Positions 296-62,494 of a stretch of 64,000 bases of DNA are shown in pieces (the stretch's first letter is position 1; the number at the start of each line of letters is the position of its first letter). This DNA comes from Deltaproteobacteria bacterium (GTDB lineage: Bacteria > Desulfobacterota > Syntrophobacteria > BM002): assembly GCA_022340745.1 (NCBI GenBank), contig JAJDNL010000239.1:155-64154 (forward strand). Reading direction: 5' to 3'. The notes beneath the pieces are model-generated. The model was given only the letters and a program-made list of their open reading frames with translations, made no database searches and was not told where the DNA came from. A program made the position numbers and the translations under genes.

Positions 296-317
296 GCGAC
301 CTTGAAGGAGGAAAAAA

Positions 318-923
318 TTGCAGATTACTTCAGCAATGGTGAAAGAGTTGCGGGAAAAAACCAACGCTGGGATTATGGATTGTAAGGCGGCACTCCAGGA
401 AACCCAGGGTGACATGCAGAAAGCCATTGATTACCTGAGACAGAAAGGCCTGGCAGTAGCTCAAAAGCGAGGCGGCAGATCCGCCAGTGAAGGTATGGTC
501 CATTCCTACATCCACGCAGGGGGCAAAATCGGCGTCATGGTGGAAGTAAACTGTGAAACCGACTTCACCGCCAGAAACGAGGTCTTTGGCGACTTTGTCA
601 AAAACCTCGCCATGCATATTGCCGCAACGAACCCCTTGGCCATTGACCGTGAGGGTCTTGCCCAGGAAGTCGTAGCGCGTGAACAGGAAATCTACCGGGC
701 GCAGGCCCTTGAAACAGGCAAACCGGAAAACATTGTCGATAAAATTGCCGAGGGAAAACTCAATAAATTCTACCAGGAGGTTTGCCTTCTGGAGCAAGCA
801 TACGTACGCGACACTGATATTACCATCGAAGATCTTCTCAACGAGCTTCGCGCCAAGACGGGCGAAAACGTAATAGTCCGTCGTTTCATCCGTTATCAGT
901 TAGGTGAAGATTCGGCTAGCTAG
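318..923 (+). CDS. tsf: translation elongation factor Ts
   Basis: 201 aa. N-terminal UBA-like ITSAMVKELREKTNAGIMDCKAAL is the EF-Ts signature. GGAGG RBS at 307-311; rpsB-tsf-pyrH-frr synteny. Confidence 0.95.
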   Translation: MQITSAMVKELREKTNAGIMDCKAALQETQGDMQKAIDYLRQKGLAVAQKRGGRSASEGMVHSYIHAGGKIGVMVEVNCETDFTARNEVFGDFVKNLAMHIAATNPLAIDREGLAQEVVAREQEIYRAQALETGKPENIVDKIAEGKLNKFYQEVCLLEQAYVRDTDITIEDLLNELRAKTGENVIVRRFIRYQLGEDSAS

Positions 924-1240
924 CACCGTTTGTTGGATTGGCTCCGCCTAATCCACCAGAGGGTAAATCCGAAATCCGAAGCACGAAACTGGGGCCCCGC
1001 CCAAAGGGTGGGGACTCCGAAGGAGAAATCCGAAACAAACTCGAAATTCAAATGTTCAAAACAAAAGAAGCTGATACACTATATCCCGGCGTTTGGGACA
1101 TTTGGATTTTGGTAATTTGAAAATTGTTTCGAATTTCGATATTCGATATTCGATATTCTGATTTCTCTGGAGATATTACCAGGATCGAGACCGAAAACAA
1201 AAAAAGTCTGCCCCCTGAACCAGCACACTGAAAAGGGACC

Positions 1241-1969
1241 ATGCCGGAAGCTAAATACAAGCGTATACTTCTCAAGATTAGTGGTGAGGCTCTGATGGGG
1301 GACGCCTCCTTTGGTATCGTCCCTGAGATTATCGACAAGGTCGCCGCAGATATATATGAAGTGGATAGTCTGGGGGTCCAGGTTGCCGTGGTTATCGGGG
1401 GAGGCAACATCTTCCGCGGCCTGTCTGCTGCTTCTCGTGGCATGGACCGGACCTCGGCGGACCATATGGGGATGTTAGCCACGGTCATCAATGCTCTAGC
1501 ACTTCAAGATGCCCTGGAGAGATTGGGTGGTCAGACCCGGGTACAATCAGCTATAAGCATGAGAGCAGTGGCAGAACCCTACATTCGTCGTCGCGCTATT
1601 CGCCACTTGGAGAAGGGACGTATAGTAATCTTCGCCGCGGGAACCGGAAATCCTTATTTTACAACGGATACCGCTGCCGCCTTGCGCGCCATGGAGGTAC
1701 AGGCCGATGTCCTGCTGAAAGCCACCAGGGTTGATGGTGTCTATCCGGCGGATCCGGAGAAGACCCCGGGTGCCCAAATAATAGACAGGATCACTCATCT
1801 GGAAGTCCTTCATAAGCAGTTGAAAGTAATGGATGCAACTGCTATTTCTCTGGCTATGGATAATGCGATGCCCATAATCGTCTTCAACCTCACAAAGCCG
1901 GGCAACATGAAGAAAGTCGTTATGGGTGAACCGGTTGGCACAATCGTAGAGGGAGAGGATAATGCTTGA
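1241..1969 (+). CDS. pyrH: UMP kinase
   Basis: 242 aa. [12 protein letters not shown]...GGGNIFRG amino-acid kinase fold motifs; overlaps frr start by 8 nt as is typical. Confidence 0.95.
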
Positions 1970-2519
1970 AGAAATATTCGAAGATTTGAAGGACAGGATG
2001 GGAAAGTCAATAGAATCTCTCAAGCGAGAATACAGCCGCCTGCGCACCGGCAGGGCCTCCATTTCCCTCCTGGATGGAATCCGGGTCTCTTACTATGATA
2101 CCCTAACCCCTCTCAATCAAATGGCCTCACTGGCAGTGCCGGAACCTCGCCTCATTGTCATCCAGCCGTGGGACAAAACGGCAATTGAAGATATCGAAAA
2201 GGCAATCCTGAAATCAGAGCTGGGTCTTACCCCCATAAATGATGGAAAAGTCATACGCATATCAATACCTCCTCTCACCGAAGAACGACGGAAAGAACTG
2301 GTCAAAGTCGCGCGAAAAATGAGCGAAGAGAACAAGGTGGCTATTCGCAACATTCGTCGCGATGCCAACGAAATGCTCAAAGACCTCAAAAAAGAAAGTG
2401 AGATCACCGAGGATGACCTGTATCGGTCACAGGAAGAAGTTCAGAAAACAACCGATCAGTTTATCTCTCAGGTGGACGAACTCTGCGAAGCCAAGGAAAA
2501 AGAAATTCTTGAGATCTAG
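1962..2519 (+). CDS. frr: ribosome recycling factor
   Basis: 185 aa; RRF family pattern ([20 protein letters not shown]...IRNIRRDAN). Confidence 0.95.
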
Positions 2520-2532
2520 CTCGGAATGACCA

Positions 2533-3327
2533 ATGGTTCCCGTTCCTGACCTGTCAAAACAAAATACTATTTCTGGTCAGCCCGCCACAGATAGCTCTAA
2601 TCTGAAAAAGCTGCCCCACCACCTGGCCATTATCATGGATGGTAACGGTCGTTGGGCTCAAGAGCGCAACCTCAGTCGTATAGAAGGACATCGTGCCGGA
2701 GCCGAGTCTGTTCGAATCATAGTCAGAAACTGCCGCAGAATTGGTATTCCTATCCTCACACTTTATGCCTTTTCAAAAGAGAACTGGCAACGACCAGGTC
2801 GTGAGGTTCAGGCCCTGTGGAGGCTGTTGAGCCGATATCTTAAATCTGAGCTTGACGAGATGATGGAGAACTCCATCCGTCTCAATGCCATTGGTGATAT
2901 CCAAGAACTGCCGAAAAGTGTTAATCGGTTGCTGGTAGACACCATGAACAAGACCTCGGCAAATAGTGAGATGATCCTCAACCTCGCCCTTAGCTACAGT
3001 GGCCGGACCGAGATCGTCCGAACTGCTCAAAAGCTGGCGGCGGCCTGCGTGGCCAATCAACTGAAACCCTCAGAAATAGATGAAGTAACGTTTTCCCGGA
3101 ATCTCTACACCTCAGACATGCCTGACCCGGACCTGCTTATTCGTACCAGTGGTGAACAACGGATCAGCAATTTTCTCCTGTGGCAAATGGCCTACACTGA
3201 GCTTTACGTCAGCCCGATATACTGGCCGGATTTTCGTGAGGCCCAGTTGATGGAAGCGCTCGCTGACTACCAGCGACGGGAACGCCGTTTTGGTAAAACT
3301 GGAGAACAACAGGCAAAAGAGGGGTAG
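2533..3327 (+). CDS. uppS: undecaprenyl diphosphate synthase (cis-prenyltransferase)
   Basis: 264 aa. HLAIIMDGNGRWA and RTSGEQRISNFLLWQ motifs are diagnostic of UppS. Confidence 0.9.
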   Translation: MVPVPDLSKQNTISGQPATDSSNLKKLPHHLAIIMDGNGRWAQERNLSRIEGHRAGAESVRIIVRNCRRIGIPILTLYAFSKENWQRPGREVQALWRLLSRYLKSELDEMMENSIRLNAIGDIQELPKSVNRLLVDTMNKTSANSEMILNLALSYSGRTEIVRTAQKLAAACVANQLKPSEIDEVTFSRNLYTSDMPDPDLLIRTSGEQRISNFLLWQMAYTELYVSPIYWPDFREAQLMEALADYQRRERRFGKTGEQQAKEG

Positions 3328-3896
3328 AAAATCTTTTCGCCGCCAAATGCTTAAAATACCGTCCCGCCCTGCCCTCTCCAAGTGGATTCCCCACCTGTAT
3401 CTGCAGCGCCAAGCCTCAGCCTAAGCGCTCTGCGCACCAGCAGGCTGCTGAAAAACTCAATATTTTGACTATGAGCATCAGGTCCGTCATTCCGGAAGGC
3501 GCGAAGTCCGCCTGCGGCGGAGAATCCAGTAAAAAAACAGCCCACTGGATACCGGATCTCGACTTCGTCTCGTCGGGTATGACGTTTGGGATTGTTTCCA
3601 GGATTTTTTAGCAGTCTGCAGGGAGCTTCAATATCGAATAAGGAATTTCGAACAGCAGAAGTTTCTAGAAAAAGTAAGACAATGTTTTTCACTTCGATAT
3701 TCTGCGGTTCATATTCTCGAAGACTGGATAGCTGATACTTGAGTGCTGACCGGGGAGACTGATCCGATTTTATGGCTCCTCCAGGGGCTGCCCAGAGCTG
3801 AGTTTTTGGAGCAGGATTTTTTACTCGCAACAAAGCGTTGGCTAAGGGAAGATAAGGGAATATCCCAAAACTTCCAAGGTGTGGTTACGCCTCCGG

Positions 3897-4700: not shown

Positions 4701-5165
4701 GTGCATAACCCCTAAACTCCCTGATCTCCTGGTTTCATATTTCTGCAGGGTTTGCTGGTCAAGACAATCCCTTGACCGACAAAAGTGTTCGGGAGAAGTC
4801 ATTATTTTTTTACGTTTCGCGGAAATCATAAGGTCGTTGATCTGGCATGTCAAGATCGAGCATAAAGTACGGGGGATTAGGAAGTAATTGAGGATTTCGC
4901 TTCGGGTCATGTGGCTGCGCCGTCATTAGATCATCACGCTTCGCTGTCATTTGTTGTAAGAGGTAGAGGAAGATTGCAGCTTGATGAAAGGCGCAAGGCG
5001 GTAGAAGACTAAATTCTTCCCCTGCGCCCTGCGCCTTGAGCCGTATGCCTCTCTGAATTCTGCCTACTGACTACTATCTACTGGATTCCTTGATTTTGAA
5101 TTGCGGATGGGGGATTGAGCCTTTGAGATATTGGTCCTTCGGACTCCCCACCCTTCTTGGGAATT

Positions 5166-7680: not shown

Positions 7681-7780
7681 AAGCACAAAATCTGAAGGTG
7701 TCGGGTGTCAGGTGTCAGGTGTCAGTGAGGAAAACAAAAAAACTGAAACCTGAACACTGAAACCTGAAACCTTCTCTACA
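7681..7780. repeat. heptamer-built hairpin element (family D): (GTGTCAG)3 arm / A-rich loop / (CTGAAAC)n arm
   Basis: AAGCACAAAATCTGAAGGTGTCGGGTGTCAGGTGTCAGGTGTCAG...AACTGAAACCTGAACACTGAAACCTGAAACC; arms are imperfect reverse complements. Ends 5 bp before the dxr GTG start. Confidence 0.7.
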
Positions 7781-8964: not shown

Positions 8965-9309
8965 CAGAGTCATTGCGGATTTGGCCTTGCGTCATTTCTT
9001 CGCGCTCGCTCCGCTCCGCTCAGGCCCGCAAGCGGGTCCCTAGTTTGGTTGCGCTGTCATTGGGCCACTACGCTGCGCTGTCATTTGTTGTAAGAGGGAT
9101 AAGATCGCGGCTACCCTTCGACAAGACTTGTCGACGAGCTCAAGTCGTGTCGCTCAGGATGGGGGATGCCCTGGGCATTGGCCCAAAAACTGCATTGGAA
9201 CTACTCGTCCACTTGGTTGGCAACAGCTTTTGGCCACGTTATAATGCAAAAGAAATTTTTGCTCTTATATTAATAAACAACATGAACTGAATAGAGGAGT
9301 TAATTAATC

Positions 9310-13756: not shown

Positions 13757-13898
13757 ATTGAAGCTCCCTGCAGTCCGCCTGCGGCGGACAGGGAATCTTC
13801 GAAATGTAAGGAAGAGATCCCATTTTATTGTAGTTCGCTCGCTAACCCCGTCCGCCTTCGGCGGACTACGGGGAATGCGCTCGCTGGAGCATTTTCAG
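13757..13898. repeat. dispersed repeat module ATTGAAGCTCCCTGCAGTCCGCC(T/G)(T/G)CGGCGGAC(TACGGGGAATGCGCTCGCTGGAGCATTTTCA), two tandem partial copies in the ilvB-ilvN spacer
   Basis: The same module occurs at 39770-39833 (+) and reverse-complemented at 37837-37943. Fragments at 3600-3620 and 47515-47530. Confidence 0.65.
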
Positions 13899-17062: not shown

Positions 17063-17163
17063 AGGCTACTCCCACCATACGAGGCAAATGACGAAAATGA
17101 ACCTGAGTGCCTGAAGCCTTGTAACAGACCATTACCACTTCGTCAGTCAAGACTTACAGGGTC

Positions 17164-17336
17164 TAGCCCGGATATTTCATGAAATATCCGGGCTCAATCT
17201 ATTCCCCTCCCAGGTAGTATCCAGGAAGGGGAAATTTTTCTTTACAGTGGGGTCAACTGCTTGGTGGTGTCACCACTTGCGGCTGACACCACCGTGATGA
17301 ATGTTAGCCCGGATATTTCATGAAATATCCGGGCTA
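17164..17336. mobile_element. MITE-A compound copy: two minimal 31-bp perfect palindromes flanking a 110-bp hairpin-rich core
   Basis: TAGCCCGGATATTTCATGAAATATCCGGGCT occurs at 17164-17194 and again at 17305-17336. The segment between them contains a 10-bp stem (GGTGGTGTCA...TGACACCACC). Lies 9 bp upstream of the leuC start. Confidence 0.7.
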
Positions 17337-17344
17337 GATGACCA

Positions 17345-23210: not shown

Positions 23211-23711
23211 ATGAAAGACAAAAGAGTCACCGTCTATGCCGGATCTTTTGACCCTATCACCAACGGTCATCTGGACTTACTGGACCGAGCCCTCAAGATC
23301 TTCGACAACATCATCATCGCAGTTGCTGAAAATCCAGCAAAACAGCCGCTTTTTACTCTTGAAGAACGTCTTGACCTCATCCGCGCAAGTCTAAAGAACC
23401 ATCAAGAGCCCGAGCGTATTAGGGTGGACAGCTTTAAGGGACTGCTCGTGGACTACGTTGAGCGCTGCGGCGCTATGGCCATTCTCAGAGGACTGCGGGC
23501 CGTAAGCGACTTTGAGTATGAGTTTCAAATGGCCCTTATGAATCGAAAGCTAAGCCGCAAGCCGGAAACCCTGTACCTGATGACAGGGGCTCGCTGGATC
23601 TACATCTCATCCAGAATAATCAAGGAGGTAGTGCAGGCGGGGGGTGGTGTGACCGGCCTGGTGCCAGAGGCGGTAGAGAAAAAGTTGCGTGAAAAATTCG
23701 AGATTGACTAG
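23211..23711 (+). CDS. coaD: phosphopantetheine adenylyltransferase
   Basis: 166 aa; YAGSFDPITNGHLDL nucleotidyltransferase motif. Its TAG stop at 23709-23711 is the first three bases of a MITE-A terminal repeat. Confidence 0.95.
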   Translation: MKDKRVTVYAGSFDPITNGHLDLLDRALKIFDNIIIAVAENPAKQPLFTLEERLDLIRASLKNHQEPERIRVDSFKGLLVDYVERCGAMAILRGLRAVSDFEYEFQMALMNRKLSRKPETLYLMTGARWIYISSRIIKEVVQAGGGVTGLVPEAVEKKLREKFEID

Positions 23712-23728
23712 CCCGGATGTTTCATAAA
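23709..23728. repeat. solo MITE-A terminus overlapping coaD stop codon
   Basis: TAGCCCGGATGTTTCATAAA; the TAG is the coaD stop. Followed by unrelated hairpin-repeat modules. Confidence 0.65.
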
Positions 23729-24003
23729 TTGCCTTTGTGAGACCCTCTAACCGGAGACCCGCCCCAAAGGGATTGAGACTGAGCGCAGCGAGCGCGAAGA
23801 AGAAGGGTGTGCCACAGAAGCGACGATCACAGAACGCGGATTAAAATTTTCCTGAAAAGCTCGTGAGAACCAGAGATCTAATGGCGCAATGTGAACTCTT
23901 ACATTCAATATCATCAATTGTAGTCAAAAATCCGAAACCGGGAACCCGCCCGGAGGGTGGGAGTCCGAAGGACAAATTCGCAATCCGCAATCCGAAATCA
24001 GGC

Positions 24004-30504: not shown

Positions 30505-30601
30505 GATCTCCTATCCCCGTAACGTTTTATAAAAATAACTAAGTTATTATCTTAACGTTTTTTCCTCGCTCTTTCCATCGCTAATGTTCTCCTTGAACAA
30601 T

Positions 30602-30675
30602 GAGGTTTCAGTGTTCAGGTTTCAGCTTTTATTGCTGTATTTCCTGACACCTGACACCCGACACCTGAAACCTCC
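30602..30675. repeat. family D heptamer hairpin element copy, inverted orientation
   Basis: GAGGTTTCAGTGTTCAGGTTTCAG...CCTGACACCTGACACCCGACACCTGAAACC. Together with a partial copy at 30058-30100 it brackets the FKBP-like gene. Confidence 0.6.
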
Positions 30676-30805
30676 ACAAAAGCCCGCAATCTTCACCTAC
30701 AACCCTGCCACGGGCGGGAGTCACCTGGTCTCCGGTGCACAATGATTTGCTTTTTTCTTGACTTGCCGCTACTATCTGACGGTCATCAACGAAAAGGGAG
30801 TAAGT

Positions 30806-31306
30806 ATGGCGAGGCTAGGGACTGTGCAAAAAAAAATATCTTTGTTTACCATGATCGTGACGATGTCCATTACTTTTTCTTTCCTTTCCGCCGCAAATGT
30901 TAGAGGCGGCAATCTCATGGATCTCACGTTGGTGGATGTGGATGGGAAGAAGGTGAGTCTCGATCAGGTGGCTGGGGACCAACTGCTCCTGCTTTATTTT
31001 TGGGCTACCTGGTGTAAGCCCTGTCGAAAAGCACAACCCAAGGTTGCCGCACTTGCCGAAAAATATAAGGACATGGTTAAGGTGGTGGGAATTAATGTGG
31101 GAGAATTGGATTCGCCAAAAGATATAAAAAAATATATTTCCCGTCAAAAGATCACCTACACCATGTTAATTGACCACAACGATGAGGCAGTGAAAAAGTT
31201 CTCCGTTGCTGCCATCCCAGTGATTATCCTTTTGGATGAAACCGGTAAAATCTTGTTCCGCGATCATGAGCCGCCGGCAAATCTGGATAAGTTCTTCTCT
31301 GAATAG
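30806..31306 (+). CDS. TlpA/ResA-like thiol-disulfide oxidoreductase (thioredoxin fold), exported
   Basis: WCKPC active site inside LLLYFWATWCKPCRK; N-terminal signal/anchor; RBS AAGGGAG upstream. Its TAG stop is the first three bases of a solo MITE-A terminus. Confidence 0.7.
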   Translation: MARLGTVQKKISLFTMIVTMSITFSFLSAANVRGGNLMDLTLVDVDGKKVSLDQVAGDQLLLLYFWATWCKPCRKAQPKVAALAEKYKDMVKVVGINVGELDSPKDIKKYISRQKITYTMLIDHNDEAVKKFSVAAIPVIILLDETGKILFRDHEPPANLDKFFSE

Positions 31307-31323
31307 CCCGGATGTTTCATGAC
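31304..31323. repeat. solo MITE-A terminus overlapping stop codon of TlpA-like gene
   Basis: TAGCCCGGATGTTTCATGA; the TAG is the stop of the 30806-31306 CDS. Confidence 0.65.
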
Positions 31324-31448
31324 TTGCAGTAAGCCCATGTTCGATGACATTACAATTGAAGCTCCCTGAGTTCATGGTTCAGACTTCCAAAAAGAGTTAG
31401 CTCAGCCCATTTGGCAGCAAGATTCTCTAATAAGGTGGAAAGCACACT

Positions 31449-31655
31449 ATGACTATGCCTTTACTGATTGCCAGTATTTTGGCGGGAATTTTGGTGACCT
31501 GTGTAGGTATTTACCGTGCTTACAACCAGGGCGAGTTCATGCCCCTGGTCTTGGGCATGCTAATATTAATGAGTTGCGCAGCTAATTACCTCAAACGGCT
31601 TACCAAAAAAGAAGACGGGGAAGACCAATCCACAGATGAGGCGGCAAACGGTTAG
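31449..31655 (+). CDS. small membrane protein, hypothetical
   Basis: 68 aa ORF with two predicted TM helices; no recognisable family; sits between two MITE-A copies. Confidence 0.3.
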   Translation: MTMPLLIASILAGILVTCVGIYRAYNQGEFMPLVLGMLILMSCAANYLKRLTKKEDGEDQSTDEAANG

Positions 31656-31689
31656 ACCGAATCGACGATTTTACCTTTGTTCTGCTGGC

Positions 31690-31873
31690 TAGCCCGGATA
31701 TTTCATGAATGACTTGCTGCGACCACGGATATGCACGTCCTTCCTGGCGTCCTCGGATGTCGGCCCCTGCAACGTACGGTACAGGTACGCCTCGGAACCG
31801 ACACCCTGCGGTTGCCAGGTTGCACGCCCATCTTCGTGGTCTCGCGACAGCAATTCATGAAATATCCGGGCTA
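31690..31873. mobile_element. MITE-A copy (184 bp), terminal inverted repeats TAGCCCGGATATTTCATGAA
   Basis: Perfect 20-bp TIRs; internal nested inverted repeat (TTGCTGCGACCACGG...CTCGCGACAGCAA). Core shares GTACGTCGCA...CGACACCCGAGGACGCC...ATATCCGCGGTCGCAG blocks with the other copies. Confidence 0.75.
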
Positions 31874-32646
31874 GGTTTCAAGGCGGTGACCAGCATACGT
31901 TTGTTGAGAAGACCGTAATCGTCGGCCTTTGGGTGAGAAACCAGAAGACCACCACAGTCGATTTGCTGGAAGCCGCTTTCAGTGAGGAGCGCTTCCATAT
32001 CTTGGGGCTGGAAAAGCCGGGCAAAGTAGCGAACATCTCGGATAAGACCACGTTCTTTACTCAAAACAATTTCCCTCACCAAAACCCCTTCGTCTTGTAG
32101 TTGACGTTCCCGACATACCACCACATCTTCATTGGCCTCGTGCCAACTGCTGGGCTTGAATTGCCGGCGCGCGTAGTCGCTGTGGATTAAGTCAAGGAGC
32201 ACCCTACCGCCTGGTTTCAACAAGCGGCGGATCTCTCGAAGTATCTCCTGGTTCTGGCTGTCTTCTTTGAAGTAACCAAAGGAATTTCCCATAACCAATA
32301 CCACGTCAAAGCTTTCGTCCGCCAACCCTACCCTACAGGCATCACCGCGACAGAAATGTATCGAGGAGTCGATTTTCGTGGCAGCGTGAGAACCCACTTC
32401 TAACAATACCTGCGAGTAGTCAACCACCATCACATTTCTGTAGCCGCGCCTGGTCAACTCGATGGCATGTCGCCCTTGACCGCCACAAAGGTCGAGAATG
32501 AGATCGTCAGTCCTGAGGCTGAGAGTGGCCTCAACCATGTCGACCTCGGTAGCTGTTACTTCCGGGCAACACACACTACGAGCGTCAGTTACAAGATACG
32601 TCTCGTCAAAAATATGTTGCCACCAAGTGGGATCATATTCATCCAT
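31855..32646 (-). CDS. class I SAM-dependent methyltransferase
   Basis: Motif I VLDLCGGQGRHAIEL and motif post-I/II (LKPGGRVLLD). Confidence 0.75.
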   Translation of the reverse strand: MDEYDPTWWQHIFDETYLVTDARSVCCPEVTATEVDMVEATLSLRTDDLILDLCGGQGRHAIELTRRGYRNVMVVDYSQVLLEVGSHAATKIDSSIHFCRGDACRVGLADESFDVVLVMGNSFGYFKEDSQNQEILREIRRLLKPGGRVLLDLIHSDYARRQFKPSSWHEANEDVVVCRERQLQDEGVLVREIVLSKERGLIRDVRYFARLFQPQDMEALLTESGFQQIDCGGLLVSHPKADDYGLLNKRMLVTALKPSPDIS

Positions 32647-32923
32647 AACTACCTCTCCACTGCCGGGAGGGGGCTAACCATTTGGTAACAGAGGGGGATT
32701 CTGTCTGCGCAGTCAGAAAATCCCAAATCCGAATATCTAAATCCTAATGACCAAAACTAAGAATGATTCTATTTGTGCAATTTTGTTTTGAACATTGGAA
32801 AATTGGGATTTAGAATTTGTTTCGAGCTTCGGATTTAGGATTTCGGATTTATTATCTGCCGTTTTCGGCTCGAAATTCGGAATTCGAAACTTACGCTTCT
32901 TTCGAGAGAAGTTGCTTCCCGCA

Positions 32924-34339: not shown

Positions 34340-34424
34340 GAATGTCGGGTGTCAGGTGTCAGGTGTCAGGGAAGAAAAACAAAACAACTGAAACCTGAAC
34401 ACTGAAACCTGAAACCTCTTCTAC
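34340..34424. repeat. family D heptamer hairpin element copy
   Basis: GTCGGGTGTCAGGTGTCAGGTGTCAGGGAAGAAAAACAAAACAACTGAAACCTGAACACTGAAACCTGAAACC; immediately upstream (5' side) of the ATP-grasp gene on the other strand. Confidence 0.7.
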
Positions 34425-36188: not shown

Positions 36189-36420
36189 TCGTGCTATTTT
36201 ATTGAGGTTATGAATTCCGAAATGAGAAACACGAAGCACGAAACAAATTCAAAATTCAAATTTTCCAATATTCAAAACAATTTCTTTCCGGAAAGCAATT
36301 ACCATTTTGGCCATTTGGATTTCGAAAATTTGAAAATTGTTTCGGATTTCGATATTCGGATTTCGGAGTTTGAAACTATCGCTGCGGATCTGGGACACCT
36401 TCTGGTTACCAGCGATCATT

Positions 36421-37515: not shown

Positions 37516-37707
37516 CTAGAGCCGCTCCAAAGTGTTTTATTTGTTCATCTTATATCATAATAACAAGGAATTGTATAGTGAAAGTGGTCACTCCCCTGTA
37601 CTCATCAGCCATGCGATAGCCTGCTGGAGTAATGGAGTGGCGAAGCATTGCAGAATATCAAATTGGTCCTTCGGACACCCCACCCTGCGGGCGGGTCCCC
37701 GGTTTCC

Positions 37708-37786
37708 AAGCACAAAATCTCTGGGTATCAGGTGTCGGGTGTCAGGGAAGAAAAACAAAACAACTGAAACCTGAAACCTCCTCTAC
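37708..37786. repeat. family D heptamer hairpin element copy
   Basis: AAGCACAAAATCTCTGGGTATCAGGTGTCGGGTGTCAGGGAAGAAAAACAAAACAACTGAAACCTGAAACC. Confidence 0.7.
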
Positions 37787-38041
37787 CGGCACAGCCATTG
37801 AACGCTGACTTGGCCCCAAGGTCTAAGTTTTCATCTTGAAAATGCTCCAGCGAGCGCATTCCCCGTAGCGACACGACTTGAGCGACACGACCTGAGCTCG
37901 TCGACAGGTCTCGTCGACAGGTCTTGCTGCAGGGAGCTTCAATAAATAGAGGAGCTCCCGACAAGGTAATTCTGTGTCTTGACGATTGTTTATGCTAAAA
38001 TGTTGCGGTCTTTTCTACTGATCTAGTCTTGGAGGTAATGT

Positions 38042-39730: not shown

Positions 39731-40158
39731 TAGATAACCCCCACCATCAAGTGAGGCTACGCTAGTTCTATTGAAGCTCCCTGCAGTCCGCCTTCGGCGG
39801 ACTACGGGGAATGCGCTCGCTAGAGCATTTTCAACGCAGAAAATCTGGCGCTTGGGGCCAGTCTTTTTTGATTTATGATTGCAGATTGAAGTGTATACAT
39901 TTTATATTTAAAAGTTGTGAGTTCTTAAATCTAAAATCTGCATTCTAAAATCTAAAATCCCACAGGCAGTCCTAAGCCGGGTCCTTTGGGCCCGGATTCT
40001 TTATTCTCTACCCTCATGCACATGGAATTCTTTGACTTTTTCACTTGATTTTTCCCAAAGCCATGTATTAAATTCGCCTTGATAATCGCCGGTTTCTCAA
40101 AGTGGGTCGATTTCGCTTCAAAGGATTGCTTCCTTGGCCAAAGCGGCGACCTAAAGTC

Positions 40159-40422
40159 TAGCCCGGATTTTTCATGAATTGCTGTCGCGAGACCGAGAGA
40201 CTGGGAACCCGCTTGCGGGACTGAGCGGAGCGCAGCGAGCGCGAAGAGGATGGGTGTACCACCGGGAAACCGCAGGGGGTTGGATCTGAGGTGTACTTGA
40301 ACAGTACGTCGCAAGATCCGACACCCGAGGACGCCCGGCTTCCGGCTCGGAGAGCCTACAGCTCGGAGAGAAGGACAGTCATATCCGCGGTCGCAGCAGG
40401 CAACTCGTGAAATATCCGGGCC
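40159..40422. mobile_element. MITE-A copy (264 bp)
   Basis: TAGCCCGGATTTTTCATGAA ... TCGTGAAATATCCGGGCC termini; core blocks GTACGTCGCAAGATCCGACACCCGAGGACGCCC and ATATCCGCGGTCGCAG shared with the 47315 and 56645 copies. Confidence 0.7.
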
Positions 40423-40462
40423 GAAACGTTATGGGTTAATCTTGAAAAAGGAGGTCAGCGTT

Positions 40463-46781: not shown

Positions 46782-46816
46782 GCTTACCTATATACCTTCG
46801 GACCCCCTTGATTGTC

Positions 46817-46836
46817 CAGCCCGGGTATTTCATGAA
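46817..46836. repeat. solo MITE-A terminus (CAGCCCGGGTATTTCATGAA) upstream of porG
   Basis: Sequence identity to the MITE-A TIR; 36 bp upstream of the porG start on the opposite strand. Confidence 0.5.
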
Positions 46837-46919
46837 TCACTTGCCGCTTTCCTATTTCTACGGTAGATTCCTAGAGGTGGAAATAACCACTCCTTTATTA
46901 CCGGTTGAGAGCGTTGGAT

Positions 46920-47333
46920 ATGTCTGAAAGACTGATAGAGAAAATCGCCCTGCCAAACGGTTTGATTCTAGAAATCTGGGACACATCTCACCTCATGGCG
47001 GGCGACAGATGGTTGGTCTCGCTTCTCGCCAAGGTGGAAGTCACTGTCTTGCCCGAGTACTTCTCTCCACTTGACGATGGCGAACAGGCTTACCAAGATC
47101 TGGTCGCCGCCCATGGCAACTCTCTGGTTTTTACCCAGGAAAAAGTGAGACTTTTCGTGGATAAAGGCGAAACCAAAGAGGTGCTCACCAGACTGCGCCG
47201 GAGCATCAAGGACAATCTGGCAGCATATCTCGGCAACCCCAAATTTGCCTCGTCTTACGTACTGAAAAAATATGGCGACCTCCGAGATCGCCAGAATTGG
47301 GGCGCCGCCCCCCCTAGCCCGGATGTTTCATGA
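46920..47333 (+). CDS. hypothetical protein, 3' end defined by MITE-A insertion
   Basis: ORF with no family recognised. Its last codons and its TGA stop lie inside the MITE-A left terminus (…GCC CCC CCT AGC CCG GAT GTT TCA TGA). Confidence 0.35.
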   Translation: MSERLIEKIALPNGLILEIWDTSHLMAGDRWLVSLLAKVEVTVLPEYFSPLDDGEQAYQDLVAAHGNSLVFTQEKVRLFVDKGETKEVLTRLRRSIKDNLAAYLGNPKFASSYVLKKYGDLRDRQNWGAAPPSPDVS

Positions 47334-47550
47334 AAATGCTATAGCGAGCGCGTCCTCCGTAGCGACTCGACCTGAGCGACACGACCTGAGCTCGTCGACA
47401 GGTCTCGTCGACAAGTCTTGCTGCGGGGTTAGCGAGCGAATTACAATAAAACGGTACGTCGCAAAGTGCGACACCCGAGGACGCCCAGAAGGACGCCTAT
47501 ATCCGCGGTCGCAGTCCGCCGTAGGCGGAATTCATGAAACATCCGGGCTA
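47315..47550. mobile_element. MITE-A copy (236 bp)
   Basis: TAGCCCGGATGTTTCATGAA ... TTCATGAAACATCCGGGCTA termini; same core blocks. The left TIR supplies the last codons and TGA stop of the upstream ORF 46920-47333. Confidence 0.75.
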
Positions 47551-47632
47551 CAAATGATGCGCTTTTCCCATAGGGAGAAGCCAAATACGGCTAAAATCTT
47601 GTAACCCTAACCGCCCTGCGAGAGTTCTTTCC

Positions 47633-47824: not shown

Positions 47825-48211
47825 CCACTGTTCACCTCTCTTTCACCATAAAAAAAGCCCTTTTCACAGGGCCCAGCCGCAACTTTCTTTGGCATGAATC
47901 GTTGTAAGGAACTGAACCTCTTCATGGTCTCAGAAGTTATCTACCAAAGCAATCGTGCTGCTGCAGTCCCCTATCAACTTTTTATCTAACATATCCTCTT
48001 GGCAGTGGCAACCCCGCACCCCTCAGGAGTTACTCCATTCCTTTGCTCACTTGGCAGATGATAGGTTGAACCGCAGAATATCGAAGTGAAAAACATTGTC
48101 TTATTTCTTTCAAAAACTTCTGCCGTTCGAAATTCCTCGTTCGATATTCACAAACGACTATTTACTTCACTCCGTATTATAGCGACCCAAGGAAGGCTGA
48201 TTGAATATCTA

Positions 48212-48440
48212 CCACAGAGGCACAGAGATCACGGAGGAGGTTGTTTTTTCCCTGGCCGGGAGACGACGGCCAGGGAAAAGAGCCTCCGCCTTCGGCGAAA
48301 GCTCCTTAACTGGTTCCAACCGATGACATCAAACCACCGGGTTACTTGATCGTGCCCGCAGGGCTGCGATCTTTTGCCCGATCGCCGTCTCCCGATCGGG
48401 CAAAAAAAATATTCCCTCTGTGCTCTCCGTGTCTCTGTGG
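48212..48440. mobile_element. MITE-B copy 1 (229 bp), TIR CCACAGAGGCACAGAG
   Basis: Termini CCACAGAGGCACAGAG...CTCTGTGCTCTCCGTGTCTCTGTGG. Internal hairpins (CCCTGGCCGGGAGACGACGGCCAGGG; TTTTGCCCGATCGCCGTCTCCCGATCGGGCAAAA). About 90 percent identical to the reverse complement of copy 2. Confidence 0.75.
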
Positions 48441-48561
48441 TTAGTAAATAAAAGTGGATATCGAAATCTAGTATTGATAGCATGCGCAGCTGAGGGAATA
48501 GGCGTTATTCAAAATTGAAAACAGGCTGAATCCCGCTTTAATCATAACTGAAAGTGCGGCA

Positions 48562-49353: not shown

Positions 49354-49880
49354 GTTACACCTCTCCTTTGTTAATCTAAGATCCATTCCAATAGCTTTAA
49401 CGATTGAGTCCATAAGAATTGAAATTTTCCTCCATGTCAAGAAAAAGCCGGCTGCAAAGATTTACCCGTTTTTTATCCGGTAAAAAATGGGTAAATCTTT
49501 GCAAAAGTAATACGGCCAAGAATCGCAACGAATACAGACCAGGACATGGGCTTTTCGGTTGATTGACTGGGCCTTGCCCCTATGCTAGTAAAAGAGGCCA
49601 CATCATACTGGCCTGTAACTAATTTAATGCCAGAAGTTCGAAACTAGTGGTTATCTAACAGTCGTTCTTGGATGAATGGAGTAAGTGTCATTTATGATTT
49701 AAGATTGCTGATTGCAGATTGAGACTAAACAGTGCTTATGACTTCGATGCGCAAAGCTCTTCAATCTAAAATCTGCATTCTAAAATCAAAAATCGCTAGT
49801 ACTCCAGCCCATCCTCCGAAGGCGCAACCGGCGACCTCCTATCACTTGGTTGCTTCTTAACCAGTTTGAGGGCTCGATAC

Positions 49881-50918: not shown

Positions 50919-50967
50919 GATGTGGGGCCATATCCCCGTGTCGCGTACATGAACCGAGTGGCTTTTC

Positions 50968-51759
50968 ATGAGCGGAATCGTAACCCTACTCACAGATTTT
51001 GGCAGCCGCGACCAGTACGTGGCCGCAGTCAAAGGCGTGCTGTTGAGCATTAACCCGTCACTCAATATAGTAGACATCACCCACGAAATAAGCCCGCAAA
51101 ACATCAAGGAGGCAGGCTTTATTCTGGCCTCAGCCTGCACATATTTCCCGGAAGGGACGCTCCACCTGGCAATTGTGGATCCTGGGGTTGGTGGGGAACG
51201 CCAGGGTTTGGCCGCCGCAACCGAGCGCTATCTTTTTGTCGGTCCTGACAACGGCTTGTTTGACTGGGTTTTTGCTGTTGATCCACCTCATCAGGTTGTG
51301 GTGCTGGAAAACCCTGACTATCAACTGCCGCAGGTTAGCGCCACATTCCATGGCCGTGATATCTTCGCCCCAGCAGCCGGACACCTGTCTCTCGGCATAC
51401 CTTTGGAGAAACTGGGGCCAGCCAGCCATTACCGGATGCATTTCCCCGGCAGACAGATCTTGAGGGATCAGGACAAACTACAGGGAGAAATCATTCATGT
51501 AGATCGTTTCGGTAACCTCATCTCTAATATTGAAATCTTGTCTGCCGGGACCGAAAGAAAGTTGCGGGACCTACAGGTCACTCTCGCTACCGAGCAACTA
51601 CTCACAGGCCCCGGCACCTATGAAGAGGCTCCCCCTTTACGCCCGTTTGCCTTGATTGGCAGCAGTGGTCTCTTGGAGGTGTCAGTCCGTAATGGCAGCG
51701 CCCATAAGGTTACCGGCTGCGGTGTGGGTACTCCAGTACTGGTTCGCCGGCTAAAGTGA
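50968..51759 (+). CDS. SAM hydroxide adenosyltransferase / SAM-dependent halogenase-like (DUF62) family protein
   Basis: IVTLLTDFGSRDQYVAAVKGVLLSINP...IVDITHEI is the DUF62 N-domain signature. Confidence 0.8.
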   Translation: MSGIVTLLTDFGSRDQYVAAVKGVLLSINPSLNIVDITHEISPQNIKEAGFILASACTYFPEGTLHLAIVDPGVGGERQGLAAATERYLFVGPDNGLFDWVFAVDPPHQVVVLENPDYQLPQVSATFHGRDIFAPAAGHLSLGIPLEKLGPASHYRMHFPGRQILRDQDKLQGEIIHVDRFGNLISNIEILSAGTERKLRDLQVTLATEQLLTGPGTYEEAPPLRPFALIGSSGLLEVSVRNGSAHKVTGCGVGTPVLVRRLK

Positions 51760-51864
51760 ACAGCATGGCTTACTCAAAGCTGAGAATCACTTTACCAAAA
51801 CGCCCATGCCATTAACTCCGCATACCATGGATACTAGATTTCGATATGCACTTTTATTTACTAA

Positions 51865-52094
51865 CCACAGAGACACGGAGAGCACAGAGGGAACCATTTC
51901 TCTTGCCCGATCGGGAGACGGCGATCGGGCAAGAGATCGCAGCCCTGCGGGCACGATCTAGTAACCGGGTGGTTCATGCCTACGGTTGGATCTAGGCTAA
52001 AGAGCTTTCGCCGCAGGCGGAGGCTCTTTTCCCTGGCCGTCGTCTCCCGGCCAGGGAAAAAACAACATCCTCCGTGTCCTCTGTGCCTCTGTGG
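51865..52094. mobile_element. MITE-B copy 2 (230 bp), inverted relative to copy 1
   Basis: CCACAGAGACACGGAGAGCACAGAG...CCTCTGTGCCTCTGTGG; same internal hairpins in reverse orientation. Confidence 0.75.
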
Positions 52095-52209
52095 TAAATT
52101 TTCACTCAGGCTTCATTAGGCCGCAACCACACGGAGCAGAGTAAATAGTCGTTTGCAAAATCCGATTAGCAGAAAAGATTCAAACATTAGGGGATTGGGG
52201 GAGCAAAAT

Positions 52210-55630: not shown

Positions 55631-55733
55631 TACCCTCACCCCCTTGTACATTTTTGATTGCAGACTGAAGATTGCAGATTACAAAATCTCAGTGCTGCAA
55701 CTGAGCTCAATCTAAAATCTCAAATCTTAAATC

Positions 55734-56582
55734 TTAAATCTCAATCTTTTCATTATCCTGCGTGCACCCTGGAACTGTCAAGAGCTCCAGTAAATGCTCC
55801 AGAGTGACAACTTCATCCGGCTCAACCAGCCCTCTACGAGCGAGCATCTCTCCGAGGTCAGCAATGGCAGGCACTTCCAAGCCAAGTTGATTAACAAGCT
55901 CCTTTTCCTGTAAGAGCCTGCCTGGAGAGTCGTCGAAAACTAACACGCCATTGTCTAAGGCAACCAGCCTCTGAGCAAGAAGAGCCTCTTCCAAAAGATG
56001 CGTGCTGTGCACCATTGTGCAGGACTCTCTCGCCTGGATGTCTTTCAGGAGGTTTAGTATTTCAGCGCGGCTCCGTCCCGCAACCATACAAAGAGGATCG
56101 TCCAGCAGGAGACATCCTTTCTGCTGTGCCAGAGCGCCAGCAAGGATCAGCCGCTGCTGCTCCCCTCCTGAGAGATGGTGGCTGAAATGTGCCGCCCGTT
56201 CATAAAGATCAACATACCGCAGGGCTTCCTCTACCCGGATTTGAATAGTCTCCGGAGTTAATCCCATGTTTTCGAGACCGAAAGCTACGTCCTCTGCCAC
56301 CACCGGTGAGACAATCTGGTTTTCAGGATTGGCAAAAATGCAGGCTGCAAGGTGGTTGAGTTCTCTTGCAGCAAGAACAGAGCCGTTTATCCTGATCTCT
56401 CCGGCTTGGGGTTGGAGTAAGCCCTTCATTAACTTCAGGAGCGTGGTCTTCCCGCTCCCTGAAGGACCCACTATTGCCACCCACTCTCCAGCAGTAATAC
56501 GCAGATCGAAATCAGCAAATACCGGTTCCTCCGCGCCGTCCTGGTAAGAGAAGGTTACCTTGTTGAGCTCAATACTGACCAT
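55734..56582 (-). CDS. ecfA: energy-coupling factor transporter ATPase (EcfA1-like ABC ATPase)
   Basis: Walker A GPSGSGKTT, signature LSGGEQQRLILA, Walker B LLLDDP. Confidence 0.8.
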   Translation of the reverse strand: MVSIELNKVTFSYQDGAEEPVFADFDLRITAGEWVAIVGPSGSGKTTLLKLMKGLLQPQAGEIRINGSVLAARELNHLAACIFANPENQIVSPVVAEDVAFGLENMGLTPETIQIRVEEALRYVDLYERAAHFSHHLSGGEQQRLILAGALAQQKGCLLLDDPLCMVAGRSRAEILNLLKDIQARESCTMVHSTHLLEEALLAQRLVALDNGVLVFDDSPGRLLQEKELVNQLGLEVPAIADLGEMLARRGLVEPDEVVTLEHLLELLTVPGCTQDNEKIEI

Positions 56583-56644
56583 GCAGCAAGAATACTCCTA
56601 TTTCGCCTAGATTTAAACGGTATTGTCGAGCACAATGCACAACC

Positions 56645-56828
56645 CAGCTCGGATGTTTCACCAATTGGTGTCGCGAGACCGCAATGATGAGTGTGCCACC
56701 GGGCAACCACAGGGTGTCGGATCCGAGGCGTACTTGAACAGTACGTCGCAGGGTCCGACACCCGAGGACGCCCGGGAGGACGATCATATCTGCGGTCGCA
56801 GCAGGTGATTCGTGAAATATCCGGGCTA
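56645..56828. mobile_element. MITE-A copy (184 bp) with degenerate left terminus
   Basis: CAGCTCGGATGTTTCACCAA ... TTCGTGAAATATCCGGGCTA; core nearly identical to the 40159 copy (GTGTACTTGAACAGTACGTCGCA...GGTCCGACACCCGAGGACGCCCGG). Confidence 0.7.
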
Positions 56829-56912
56829 AAATAGAGGGTATGTCATTGACTAATTTATTGATTTAATGGTACTTTAGCCATCGATATACGCAACTGCAAA
56901 GGGTACACGAAC

Positions 56913-57662
56913 ATGACCGACACCGCGAGATTCAAAAAAGGCGCCACCATCATCCACGAAGGAACCACCGGTTCTAACGCCTATCTCATTCTTTCGGGCT
57001 CGGTGGAGGTGTACAAAAAAGTTGGAGATGAAAAGCTGGTACTGTCCAGATTAGTAAAGGGCAACATTTTTGGGGAAATGAGCCTTGTGGATGACAAACC
57101 TCGCTCCGCGACTATTGCTGCCTTGGAAGATACCGAAGTGAGAATCTTGAGCCGCGAGCGCTTTGAGTCCATGTTGGAGCAAAACCCTCGCGCCGTTATC
57201 CCGCTACTCAAACAGGTTTTTCAGCGCGTCAGATATTTGAACCAGATGGTAACGGCATTCTGTGGTCAAGCCAGCACCGGGACCGTGGAATTGGCGACTC
57301 ATCCTCTTCGGCTAACGGCCAAAACTGAAGAGGCCGAACAAGCCATGCAGGGCAAGGAGATAGATATCAGCAAAATACCCTTTCAAATTGGCAGGACCTC
57401 TACCAGCAGCGTGTTTGGCTCTAATGATTTGAACATTGAAGACACAGAGCCATATCGGATTTCTCGATGCCATTGCCTGATAACCATTGTGGATAACGAA
57501 TATTATGTGGTTGATACGGTAAGCAGCCGCGGAACCGTGGTTGACAGCAGTAAAATCGGAGGCCGAGAAGACCTGAAGCGAGTATTACTTGCAAGTGGCA
57601 AACATCAGATTATCCTGGGTGGCGAAGAGTCACCGTATGTGTTTGATCTTGAAGTTCCCTAG
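56913..57662 (+). CDS. cyclic-nucleotide-binding domain / FHA domain protein
   Basis: N-terminal cNMP-binding fold (GNIFGEMSLVDDKPRSATIAA). C-terminal FHA (IGRTSTSS...ISRCHCLI...YVVDTVSSRGTVVDSSKI). Its TAG stop is the first three bases of a MITE-A terminus fragment. Confidence 0.75.
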   Translation: MTDTARFKKGATIIHEGTTGSNAYLILSGSVEVYKKVGDEKLVLSRLVKGNIFGEMSLVDDKPRSATIAALEDTEVRILSRERFESMLEQNPRAVIPLLKQVFQRVRYLNQMVTAFCGQASTGTVELATHPLRLTAKTEEAEQAMQGKEIDISKIPFQIGRTSTSSVFGSNDLNIEDTEPYRISRCHCLITIVDNEYYVVDTVSSRGTVVDSSKIGGREDLKRVLLASGKHQIILGGEESPYVFDLEVP

Positions 57663-58082
57663 CCCGGAGAGATTTTAGATTTGTCCTGCGGACTCCCACC
57701 CTTCGGGCGGGTTCCCAGTTTTAGAATGCAGATTTCAGATTTAAAAGCTCAAGACCTTCTAGTGAAGAATGCATTCACCTCAATCTGCAATCTCCAATCT
57801 GCAATCATAAATCTAAAGAGACTGGCCCTGAGACCAGGTTTTCTACGACTAAATAAGATCTAATTCCCCCCACTCCCCCCATACAAAGTGGTAATTTATT
57901 TCCACTTTGTTACCTTTACTTCCCAAAAATTACCTCGCAGTTTTCCCATAAGATCTTTTTAACTATTTGGAATCGTAGAGAAATTTAAAAGATTGCCTTT
58001 TGGCACGGTCTTTGTTTATCAAGGCTTCACTGAGCAAATTAACTCATGCTGACGCCGACAAGGAATGGTACGAGAAGTCCGT

Positions 58083-61215: not shown

Positions 61216-61600
61216 AGTTGATCATCTGCTAAATACCAGACTCGATTGTTATATGGACTCAGCCCTAAAGAGTTATGTAAATTTTTTAGGAGGCATCAAT
61301 CGCTCTGAGTTTCAGGTAATTTCTGGATTAGGTTGTGGCTAACCCAAGACTTATTATCTACATTGCATAGCAGTTTGTCGAAATTTTATATAGCATACTT
61401 TAATCCACCGTGTACCGCTTGAGAACCAGATACCATATGGTGGAGCAACCAAACCATGCTCCAGCGCTCCTGGAAATTCCACCAAGACTAAGCTGCCAGC
61501 CGCTGACCAATTCTCGAGGGGTTAACGTCAGGAGCAGTAAAGAATCCGGGCCCATCGAAGATCCCGCTGTGCGTAAAAGGAGCCCAGCACTTTACGGTTT

Positions 61601-61678
61601 GTCCTGCGGACTCCCACCCTACGGGTGGGTTCCCGGTTTGTCCTGCGGACTCCCACCCTACGGGTGGGTTCCCAGTTT
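61601..61678. repeat. two tandem 39-bp hairpin units GTCCTGCGGACTCCCACCCTACGGGTGGGTTCCC(G/A)GTTT
   Basis: Each unit contains a CCCACCC-TACG-GGTGGG stem-loop. Related single units at 57683-57722, 37663-37700, 5128-5160 and, reverse-complemented, at 23936-23974. Confidence 0.7.
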
Positions 61679-61740: not shown

Positions 61741-61768
61741 CTTTATGAGTCACCGTGGAAAAGAACTA

Positions 61769-62494
61769 CTACTTCTCGTCCTCGTCTTTGGCTTTCTTGG
61801 TCCTACCTTTTTTCTTTTTGGCAGTTTTTGTAGCTTTCTCTGACTCAGGCTCTGAGGCCTCTTCAGCTGCCGGGGCTTCGGCTTTCGCCTTTTTCGCGGG
61901 TTTACGCTTCTTCTTTTTCTCTTCGACAGCTTCCTCTGCTACCGCCTTTTCAGCTGCCGGTGCTTCGGCTTTCGCCTTTTTCGCGGGCTTACGCTTCTTC
62001 TTTTTCTGCTCGACAGCTTCCTCTGCTACCGCCTCTTCAGTTGCAGCTTCCTCCTCTACTATCTCCTCAACAGCCGGAGGTGCAGCCTCTACAGCTTTGC
62101 GGGGTTTGCGTTTCCTCTTCTTTTTCTTCTTTGCAGCTTCCCCGGTCATCAGCTCGATGAGACTCAATGGGGCACCATCACCAACCCGAAAACCTACTCT
62201 TACCATACGAGTGTAGCCGCCACTGCGGGCCTGATAACGCTGGGCCAGATCAGTAAATAATTTGTGAACCACCGCCTTATCTCGTATGACTTGGAGTGCC
62301 TGGCGTCTGGCGTGCAGATCTCCCCTTTTTCCCAAGGTTATCATCCAATCAGCCCAGCGCCGAAGCTCCTTGGCCTTGGCATGGGTGGTGTATATACGTT
62401 CGTGATCCAGCAGCGAAGTCACCATGTTGCGAAACATGGCCAACCGATGGCTGGAAGAGCGATTCAGCTTTCTCCCACTCTTGCCGTGTCGCAT
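61769..62494 (-). CDS. rplQ: 50S ribosomal protein L17 with long Lys/Ala/Glu-rich C-terminal extension
   Basis: N-terminal 120 aa are canonical L17 ([24 protein letters not shown]...). The C-terminal 120 aa are a low-complexity [19 protein letters not shown] repeat. rpoA-rplQ synteny. Confidence 0.9.
61864..62037. repeat. 87-bp direct tandem duplication inside the rplQ C-terminal extension (2 copies, about 95 percent identical)
   Basis: Copy 1 at 61864-61950 and copy 2 at 61951-62037 differ at about 4 positions. Encodes the repeated AVAEEAVE(Q/E)[19 protein letters not shown](K/E) 29-aa unit. Confidence 0.8.

Follow-up and report, generated by a model that had tools for sequence, protein, structure and literature searches.

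MITE-A, a family of small non-coding elements in a deltaproteobacterial genome, and its probable IS1380-family partner

What is the short inverted repeat scattered through this stretch of deltaproteobacterial DNA, what enzyme would move it, and is it moving still? The window, by which we mean the whole 64-kb stretch that was analysed, had been described as carrying a previously unnamed family of MITEs, MITE-A, at ten sites. The repeat motif is real. The 20-mer TAGCCCGGATATTTCATGAA has 13 matches in the window at no more than 3 mismatches, and 100 dinucleotide-preserving shuffles average 0.00. Rescanning the window with the 17-nt core at no more than 4 mismatches gives 16 ends at nine loci. Nine of the ten listed sites therefore hold. 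The tenth (57660..57669, plus strand) matches only at TAGCCCGGAG / TAGCCCGGA(G), and because a match of 9-10 nt is set against roughly 0.5 random matches to a 9-mer expected by arithmetic per 128 kb, it may be chance and we do not claim it as MITE-A.

The nine loci are four full copies of 178-259 bp, two 26-bp palindromes and three truncated ends, so that elements in the window span 26-259 bp; the earlier count of at least five full and four solo-terminus copies has to be replaced. Paired ends lie at 17167/17192, 17308/17333, 31693/31870, 40162/40420, 47318/47547 and 56648/56825, and solo ends at 23712, 31307 and 46820. The density given before, about one locus per 7 kb, is correct.

The focal copy (31693-31870, 178 bp, plus strand; 31689..31874 with flanks) has an intact duplication, CTAG at 31689-31692 and again at 31871-31874. 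At 94.9% identity to the family consensus it is the youngest-looking in the window. The full copy at 56648-56825 (178 bp, minus strand; 56644..56829 with flanks CCAG/CTAA) is 86% identical to the consensus and has a degenerate left terminal inverted repeat (TIR), CTCGGATGTTTCACCAA, mismatched at 4 of 17 positions. The copy at 40162-40420 (259 bp, minus strand; 40158..40424 with flanks CTAG/CCGA) is also 86% identical over its MITE parts and is interrupted by two foreign elements nested within it, B (49 nt, about 40200-40248) and C (about 30 nt, 40340-40368). The last copy with both ends, 47318-47547 (230 bp, minus strand; 47314..47551 with flanks CTAG/CTAC), has had one arm replaced or interrupted by a nested element D/F (about 47328-47440) that resembles 37834-37934.

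Three loci are truncated. The one at 23708..23840 (minus strand) keeps one end intact, followed by about 33 nt of MITE, an element B nested there and a degenerate MITE stretch; its other end is lost. The relic at 31303..31335 (minus strand) is a solo end of about 25-30 nt, in which the TAG at 31304-31306 is also the stop of an AhpC/TSA gene. The relic at 46816..46848 (plus strand, flank CCAG) begins with CCCGGGTATTTCATGAATCACTTGCCGC, which is consensus positions 1-27, and then diverges.

The minimal form had been described as two TIRs abutted in a palindrome. Such a two-end palindrome exists, at 26 bp by the true ends and 31-32 bp by the earlier boundaries. One, CCCGGATATTTCATGAAATATCCGGG, lies at 17167-17192 (17163..17196 with flanks CTAG/CTCA), and in it both TIRs overlap in the self-complementary TTCATGAA; the second lies at 17308-17333 (17304..17337 with flanks TTAG/CTAG), and neither is given a strand. 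Since TTCATGAA is its own reverse complement, it stands as a direct repeat at the inner edges of both TIRs, and the palindromes probably arise by deletion between its two copies. They match exactly the expected product of a deletion between TTAGATGAA-type repeats.

Where does the element begin? The true ends are the 17-bp inverted repeats CCCGGATATTTCATGAA...TTCATGAAATATCCGGG, which are invariant or nearly so when 23 copies are aligned. The 20-bp TIR of the preliminary description is this 17-bp TIR plus 3 nt (TAG/CTA) of target duplication, and its 184-264 bp for full copies becomes 178-259 bp. The boundary is settled by full insertion sequence (IS) copies with the same ends, which are flanked by CTAG/CTAG in three cases, TTAG/TTAG in two and CTAA/CTAA in one; the element must therefore begin CCCGG, and TAG/CTA belongs to the duplication. 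The target duplication that the preliminary description proposed to look for is a 4-bp YTAR, usually CTAG. Among 242 ends in the matches listed, the flanking tetranucleotide is CTAG in 109, TTAG in 53, CTAA in 16 and TTAA in 5, and flank composition shows Y-T-A-R with no signal outside those 4 bp.

It could be argued that only TA is duplicated. MITE-A would then be of Tc1/IS630 type, the element proper would run GCCCGG...CCGGGC, and an IS630/Tc1 transposase, one of the partners suggested earlier, would be the enzyme to look for. The TA is indeed nearly invariant on both sides, and the G and C that adjoin the ends are steadier than the outer bases, just as this reading would have it. The matter can be decided with flanks that depart from the canonical form. 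The genome and metagenome loci among the matches listed yield, when combined, 138 unique MITE copies; we took the 91 in which TA is intact on both sides and scored the first and fourth positions separately; in about a third of MITE copies the flanks are no longer xTAx on both sides. There are 103 position-pairs that are canonical on both sides, 30 that are non-canonical but identical on both sides, 40 in which the outer base is variant and the inner canonical, and 8 in which the inner base is variant and the outer canonical. When the inner base is variant, the outer base on the opposite side is identical in 30 of 39 cases against a baseline of 28% (p = 3e-10). A duplication of TA alone is rejected by these 30 identical non-canonical pairs. 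It also fails on the TTAG/TTAG and CTAA/CTAA around full IS copies, and the transposases found between these ends are all of the IS1380 family, none of IS630. We give the Tc1/IS630 reading almost no credence.

Ends identical over the 17 bp to those of MITE-A bound IS1380-family elements of 1.57-1.63 kb (1573-1632 bp) that have a single transposase ORF of 437-456 aa. Among the genome matches listed, nine pairs of ends spaced 1513-1632 bp apart each enclose one long ORF of 451-456 aa. Against family models the transposase ORF scores E = 3e-165 with Pfam PF13701 and E = 1e-124 with NF033539, the IS1380 equivalog of NCBIfam, passing both curated cut-offs. With a Thermodesulfobacteriota homologue as the query, a protein collection holds at least 8000 relatives at E <= 1e-30. 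Five contigs for three transposase relatives (L123-L127) carry 1612-1620-bp elements bounded by CCCGGATATTTCATGAA, with perfect ends in three and one mismatch at one end in two, and CTAG stands on both sides in four of the five. These elements share the terminal 17 bp and the CTAG duplication with MITE-A; unlike MITE-A they encode a transposase, and none lies within the window. They, together with the types represented by L006 and L009, are the likely source of a transposase that would mobilise MITE-A.

Two other candidates for an autonomous copy were set aside: L085, with 1231 bp between its ends, is a scaffold gap plus a host gene, and L040, with 981 bp, is a pair of ends around a host gene. 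The contig L021 has two full IS1380 copies head to tail at 217-3361 with a single shared CTAA (CTAG-IS-CTAA-IS-CTAG); either the duplication around one copy seems to have served as the target of its neighbour, or the two form a tandem dimer.

The IS1380 family makes direct repeats of 4-5 bp and has ends that begin 5'-CC (ISfinder). Its member IS1247 has a 5-bp direct repeat (PMC3281130). MITE-A and the IS copies fit this pattern, their ends opening with CCCGG and their duplication being 4 bp long. Among named elements ISPa33 and ISMaq4, annotated on plasmids by NCBI, come nearest. Their ends, CCCGGATTTCTCATGA and CCCGGAT(T/A)T(C/T)TCATGA, are much like those of MITE-A, and their duplications, CTAA and CTAG, are 4 bp long as well. 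Their transposases of about 435 aa are 50-57% identical to those found between exact MITE-A ends. They differ in being autonomous, about 1.56 kb long, with 2-3 differences in the 17-bp end, whereas MITE-A is non-coding and its interior is unrelated to any IS copy examined. Our reading, held with considerable confidence and drawn from sequence comparison, is that MITE-A copies are cut-and-paste non-autonomous MITEs that would be mobilised in trans by an IS1380 DDE transposase of the ISPa33/ISMaq4 clade. That transposase would act on the 17-bp ends CCCGGATATTTCATGAA / TTCATGAAATATCCGGG and insert the element into YTAR, mostly CTAG, with the tetranucleotide duplicated. We infer that such a transposase mobilises, or once mobilised, MITE-A in the source organism.

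The likeness between the MITE consensus and any IS copy is limited to the terminal 17-19 bp, and comparison of the MITE interior with the IS subterminal regions found no likeness beyond these. The transposases have diverged to 53-63% identity among themselves and yet keep the same ends, which speaks for the partnership. On the other side, full-length IS copies that have both ends and a label come from Opitutales and Alphaproteobacteria MAGs, and L123-L127 are unlabelled ENA/NCBI contigs; in the Desulfobacterota, the matches listed hold only one IS end beside a transposase gene (L007, a Thermodesulfobacteriota chromosome). Within the 64-kb window, tblastn detected no IS1380 transposase, and Pfam found no transposase domain in the 18 ORFs tested, so both searches bear out the earlier statement that the window has no transposase gene.

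The other suggested partner, an IS200/IS605-family transposase, does not fit either, since MITE-A has clear TIRs and a 4-bp duplication and the enzyme linked to its ends is a DDE transposase. Membership in IS200/IS605 or in REP/RAYT (REPIN) systems, which lack TIRs and a duplication and have subterminal hairpins that a HUH (Y1) transposase recognises, was rejected on the same evidence. The non-autonomous MITE reading itself stands on conserved termini, many copies, nested structure and the minimal two-end palindrome. MITEs as a kind are already known; Correia, ERIC, Nezha and Chunjie are likewise small, non-coding, TIR-bounded, hairpin-forming, intergenic, multicopy and sometimes fused to gene ends (PMC10969869, PMC3184786). 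MITE-A shares those traits with them but differs in ends, partners and duplications, and Chunjie, with 21-bp TIRs and 9-bp direct repeats, was rejected as its identity. These reviews of bacterial MITEs make no mention of one derived from IS1380 (PMC10969869, PMC3184786). Searching the literature for the TIR string, for IS1380 with MITE and for IS1380 with CTAG found nothing relevant, and thus no publication that would contradict the description of the family as previously unnamed. By its ends and duplication we tie the family to the ISPa33/ISMaq4-like clade of IS1380.

The same flanks hold a second signal. The 40 position-pairs with an outer variant and canonical inner base against 8 of the reverse kind (p = 3e-6) are not expected from a plain 4-bp duplication followed by random decay. 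The asymmetry appears in the separate data sets among the matches listed, 23 against 2 in genome loci and 17 against 6 in metagenome loci. By analogy, it suggests that donor flanks may travel with the element, as they do in piggyBac. The ends of piggyBac read 5'-CCC...GGG-3' and resemble those of MITE-A. In piggyBac transposition each terminal 3'-OH makes its attack on the opposite strand at a point four nucleotides out in the flank, so that the donor tetranucleotide leaves on the excised element as a 5' overhang able to pair with the target once strand transfer has taken place (PMC7351741). Its target is TTAA, with TTAG and CTAA as minor sites (PMC3064801), so that both systems duplicate an xTAx tetranucleotide, TTAA being preferred there and CTAG by MITE-A. 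The IS1380 transposases serve as the prokaryotic outgroup in piggyBac phylogenies (PMC10813416).

On this analogy, 4 nt of donor flank would leave with MITE-A or the IS as 5' overhangs, to which the observed asymmetry conforms. When a CTAG donor entered TTAG or CTAA, trimming would remove a mismatched base from the 5' tip of the overhang and target sequence would take its place, and a mismatch adjoining the element end could be ligated in and survive in one daughter. In a target other than CTAG, the base that touches the element would thus tend to be the donor's, and the outer base, like the copy on the other strand, would mirror the target. Such a model predicts that perfect variant duplications and outer-variant copies should both be common; the inner-variant class would be rare because it needs a variant donor. 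There are points on the other side. The structural match of the transposase is stronger to Tn5, which makes a hairpin without flank, than to piggyBac, and an alignment profile of the transposase searched against Protein Data Bank sequences gave no significant match. We put forward only tentatively, then, that the ISPa33-like IS1380 clade and its MITEs might follow a piggyBac-type pathway, with flank-carrying hairpin excision, YTAR integration and possibly seamless excision.

A different objection to the MITE reading is that the repeat is really an element of the host. The preliminary description raised the alternative of a recruited REP-like DNA hairpin or stable RNA. Such an element would be kept for a cellular role, for instance protection of mRNA 3' ends, termination or protein binding, with transposition as its origin only. 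Some of the evidence does lean that way. The 184-nt focal copy folds as DNA into a long imperfect hairpin of -51.3 kcal/mol (z = -6.8), and the copies align end to end, which confirms the shared internal blocks and the inverted-repeat folding reported earlier. Over 23 copies, 96% of cells are paired. Compensatory change is seen at nine stem pairs, where shuffles give 2.7 +/- 1.0 and slid controls 2-4, although sequences that are related can outscore shuffles even if nothing constrains their structure. The stem may be under some constraint, possibly one imposed by transposition. The 178-bp interior has 88% mean column identity in 23 copies across MAGs, which suggests conservation beyond neutral decay that transposition alone does not explain. 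Copies also often lie immediately 3' of genes.

The rest of the evidence argues against a host role. Orientation relative to genes is unbiased, with 8 copies ++ and 6 -- in tandem contexts, which argues against a role at the transcript level. Rfam 15 has no match at gathering score in the whole window and none at E <= 1 over 31600-31950. A scan of the element for a promoter or terminator consensus or a T-run found none. Copies are freely truncated and disrupted by nested insertions, at least ten unrelated interiors share the same ends, and presence differs among close relatives. We consider the host-element alternative improbable and little supported, and return to MITE-A as a mobile element.

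How widely is it spread? A scan of one genome per species with the query AGCCCGGATNTTTCATGAA is informative here. The motif is not confined to the window, as it occurs in at least 117 stretches of other genomes and at least 120 metagenome stretches. Many genome matches come as a plus and a minus end separated by 160-180 bp, or with the two abutted in a palindrome. The MAGs among the matches listed are labelled Desulfobacterota/Thermodesulfobacteriota, Alpha-, Beta-, Gamma- and Zetaproteobacteria, Opitutales, Planctomycetota, Terriglobia and Bdellovibrionota. In these matches the same ends bound the ten or more unrelated interiors just mentioned, in MAGs labelled with six phyla. Clustering of the listed matches gives the 178-bp family, whose 36 copies are all in Desulfobacterota-labelled MAGs save one labelled Alphaproteobacteria, a 160-bp family in Gamma- and Betaproteobacteria, and elsewhere many small or singleton interior families. 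Phages are not an obvious vehicle, since 2.9 million viral contigs hold just 2 exact matches.

All copies are intergenic or touch gene ends. In the 178-bp family, about 10 copies out of 35 adjoin or overlap the stop of a flanking ORF, the stop being the duplication's TAG or the TIR's TGA. Many copies sit exactly on stop codons because YTAR contains TAG or TAA, and duplication of YTAR would restore the stop of the gene. In the window, the CTAG flank at 23709 supplies the TAG stop of a cytidylyltransferase-like gene (23211-23711), and the TAG at 31304-31306 ends the AhpC/TSA gene (30758-31306). A cNMP-binding/FHA gene (56913-57662) stops on the TAG at the doubtful site 57660; all three genes are confirmed by Pfam.

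At the focal copy the element encodes the end of a gene. A methyltransferase gene on the minus strand (31855-32646) ends at a TGA inside the right TIR of this copy and encodes 263 aa against 258 aa in most orthologues. The gene ends ...AAACCCTAA in the related contigs L128 and L129 and ...AAACCTAG[element]CTAG in the window. Compared with its orthologues, the window gene has lost one C before the stop and reads through the duplicated CTAG into the MITE end (31855-31872), giving the tail PSPDIS, with the five residues SPDIS gained, before the TGA of the TIR.

Is MITE-A moving now? The preliminary description concluded from the density of copies that the element is recently active or still mobilised, and one could take that density for the outcome of recent bursts in a source genome where transposition continues. 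The focal copy, with its high identity and perfect CTAG/CTAG, speaks for this. It lies at the methyltransferase stop, and the orthologous contigs L128 and L129 have no MITE there (...CCCTAA), the orthologue being 92% identical. The closest relative of the window among the matches listed, the Syntrophobacterales MAG L115 (about 3.4 kb of synteny at 85-92% identity), carries the element, 178 bp long and set between CTAG and CCAG, at a place where the window reads only AATAG. Both comparisons of occupied with empty sites are imperfect: flank identity reaches no more than 85-92%, and at the 31693 site one side cannot be aligned with L128.

The other copies tell against continued activity. The three other full copies are about 86% identical to the consensus, with decayed flanks, and nested insertions occur among them. 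Three loci are mere stumps, and the solo end at 31307 beside AhpC is matched by a degenerate version in the corresponding position of L128 and L129, so it predates the split from a related species. The transposase gene is absent from the 64 kb. In our opinion current transposition in the source genome is doubtful. MITE-A is mostly fossil in the window and only 31693-31870 looks young, so that the claim of recent activity can be kept for one copy at most.

Other small repeats in the window deserve description in their own right. Element B is a 49-nt unit, ACTGGGAACCCGCTTGCGGGACTGAGCGGAGCGSAGCGAGCGCGAATTA plus a variable small hairpin, that is found nested in MITE-A copies and also free-standing. 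Its sites are 40200-40248, 23750-23800 and 8996-9044 (minus strand) in the window, and L020, L030, L104 (three times) and L111 elsewhere. Inside MITE-A it always follows consensus position 140-145 or the mirror position 35, in several genomes, and it looks like a tiny site-specific mobile element. A second small element with TIRs, TTGAAGCTCC...GGAGCATTTTCAA, is 65-140 nt long with variable inner hairpins. It lies at 13757-13897, 37834-37942 (minus strand), 39770-39833 and 47328-47440 (nested in MITE-A), and remnants of it lie at 3613-3631 and 31356-31370. Copies in L104, L111 and the window interrupt a MITE-A end at its inner edge, TTCATGAA.

Many intergenic regions hold heptamer foldbacks, in which tandem heptamers are followed by a 20-40-nt centre and by heptamers on the other arm. 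Types include GATTGCA, GGTGTCA and AAATCCG, and the arms are complementary in the GATTGCA and AAATCCG types. One set lies at 39863-39960, 49689-49794, 55649-55754 and 57719-57815, a second at 7693-7775, 30600-30675, 34340-34420 and 37720-37780, and a third at 965-1160, 32718-32850 and 36213-36365. They are probably mobile, since the same build is nested in MITE-A copies of L033 and L104. There is also a GC-rich hairpin repeat of about 40 nt, TTGGTCCTTCGGACTCCCCACCCTnnGGGnGGGTnCCCnGTT, in seven places, once as a tandem pair (1003-1045, 5130-5154, 23935-23977, 37663-37704, 57681-57721 and 61599-61678).

A longer non-coding sequence of about 370 nt is present as two inverted copies that are 88-94% identical, at 48150-48520 (plus) and 51787-52155 (reverse complement). 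A long stem, CCACAGAGGCACAGAG...CTCTGTGCTCTCCGTGTCTCTGTGG, closes it around four internal GC hairpins, and both copies lie just 3' of a gene in equal orientation relative to it; Rfam has no match for it. The second copy lies, with a SAM hydroxide adenosyltransferase-like gene (50968-51759), in a 1268-bp segment (50929-52196) that is missing from the syntenic L115, which joins window position 50928 to 52197. Finally, an 87-nt unit is present as two tandem copies of 94% identity at 61857-62030, and a long ORF on each strand overlaps them (61755-62216 plus, 61769-62494 minus).

What does this mean for the family and the genomes that carry it? Correct boundaries, target and partner improve the annotation of intergenic DNA and of gene 3' ends, and this matters for a repeat that is strewn through Desulfobacterota genomes and fragments their assemblies. 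The old MITE-A copies are natural traps that expose, to the nucleotide, other tiny mobile elements that have inserted into them. The asymmetry of the flanks is a cheap handle on whether IS1380 shares the chemistry of piggyBac. If it does, hundreds of metagenome insertions would be ready data on flank carry-over, which is hidden in piggyBac because donor and target are both TTAA, and bacteria would have a small enzyme, about 437 aa long, that is piggyBac-like in its precision. A single 17-bp end shared by divergent transposases (53-63% identity), in MAGs labelled with six phyla and around at least ten unrelated interiors, makes a useful case for studying how MITE families are born.
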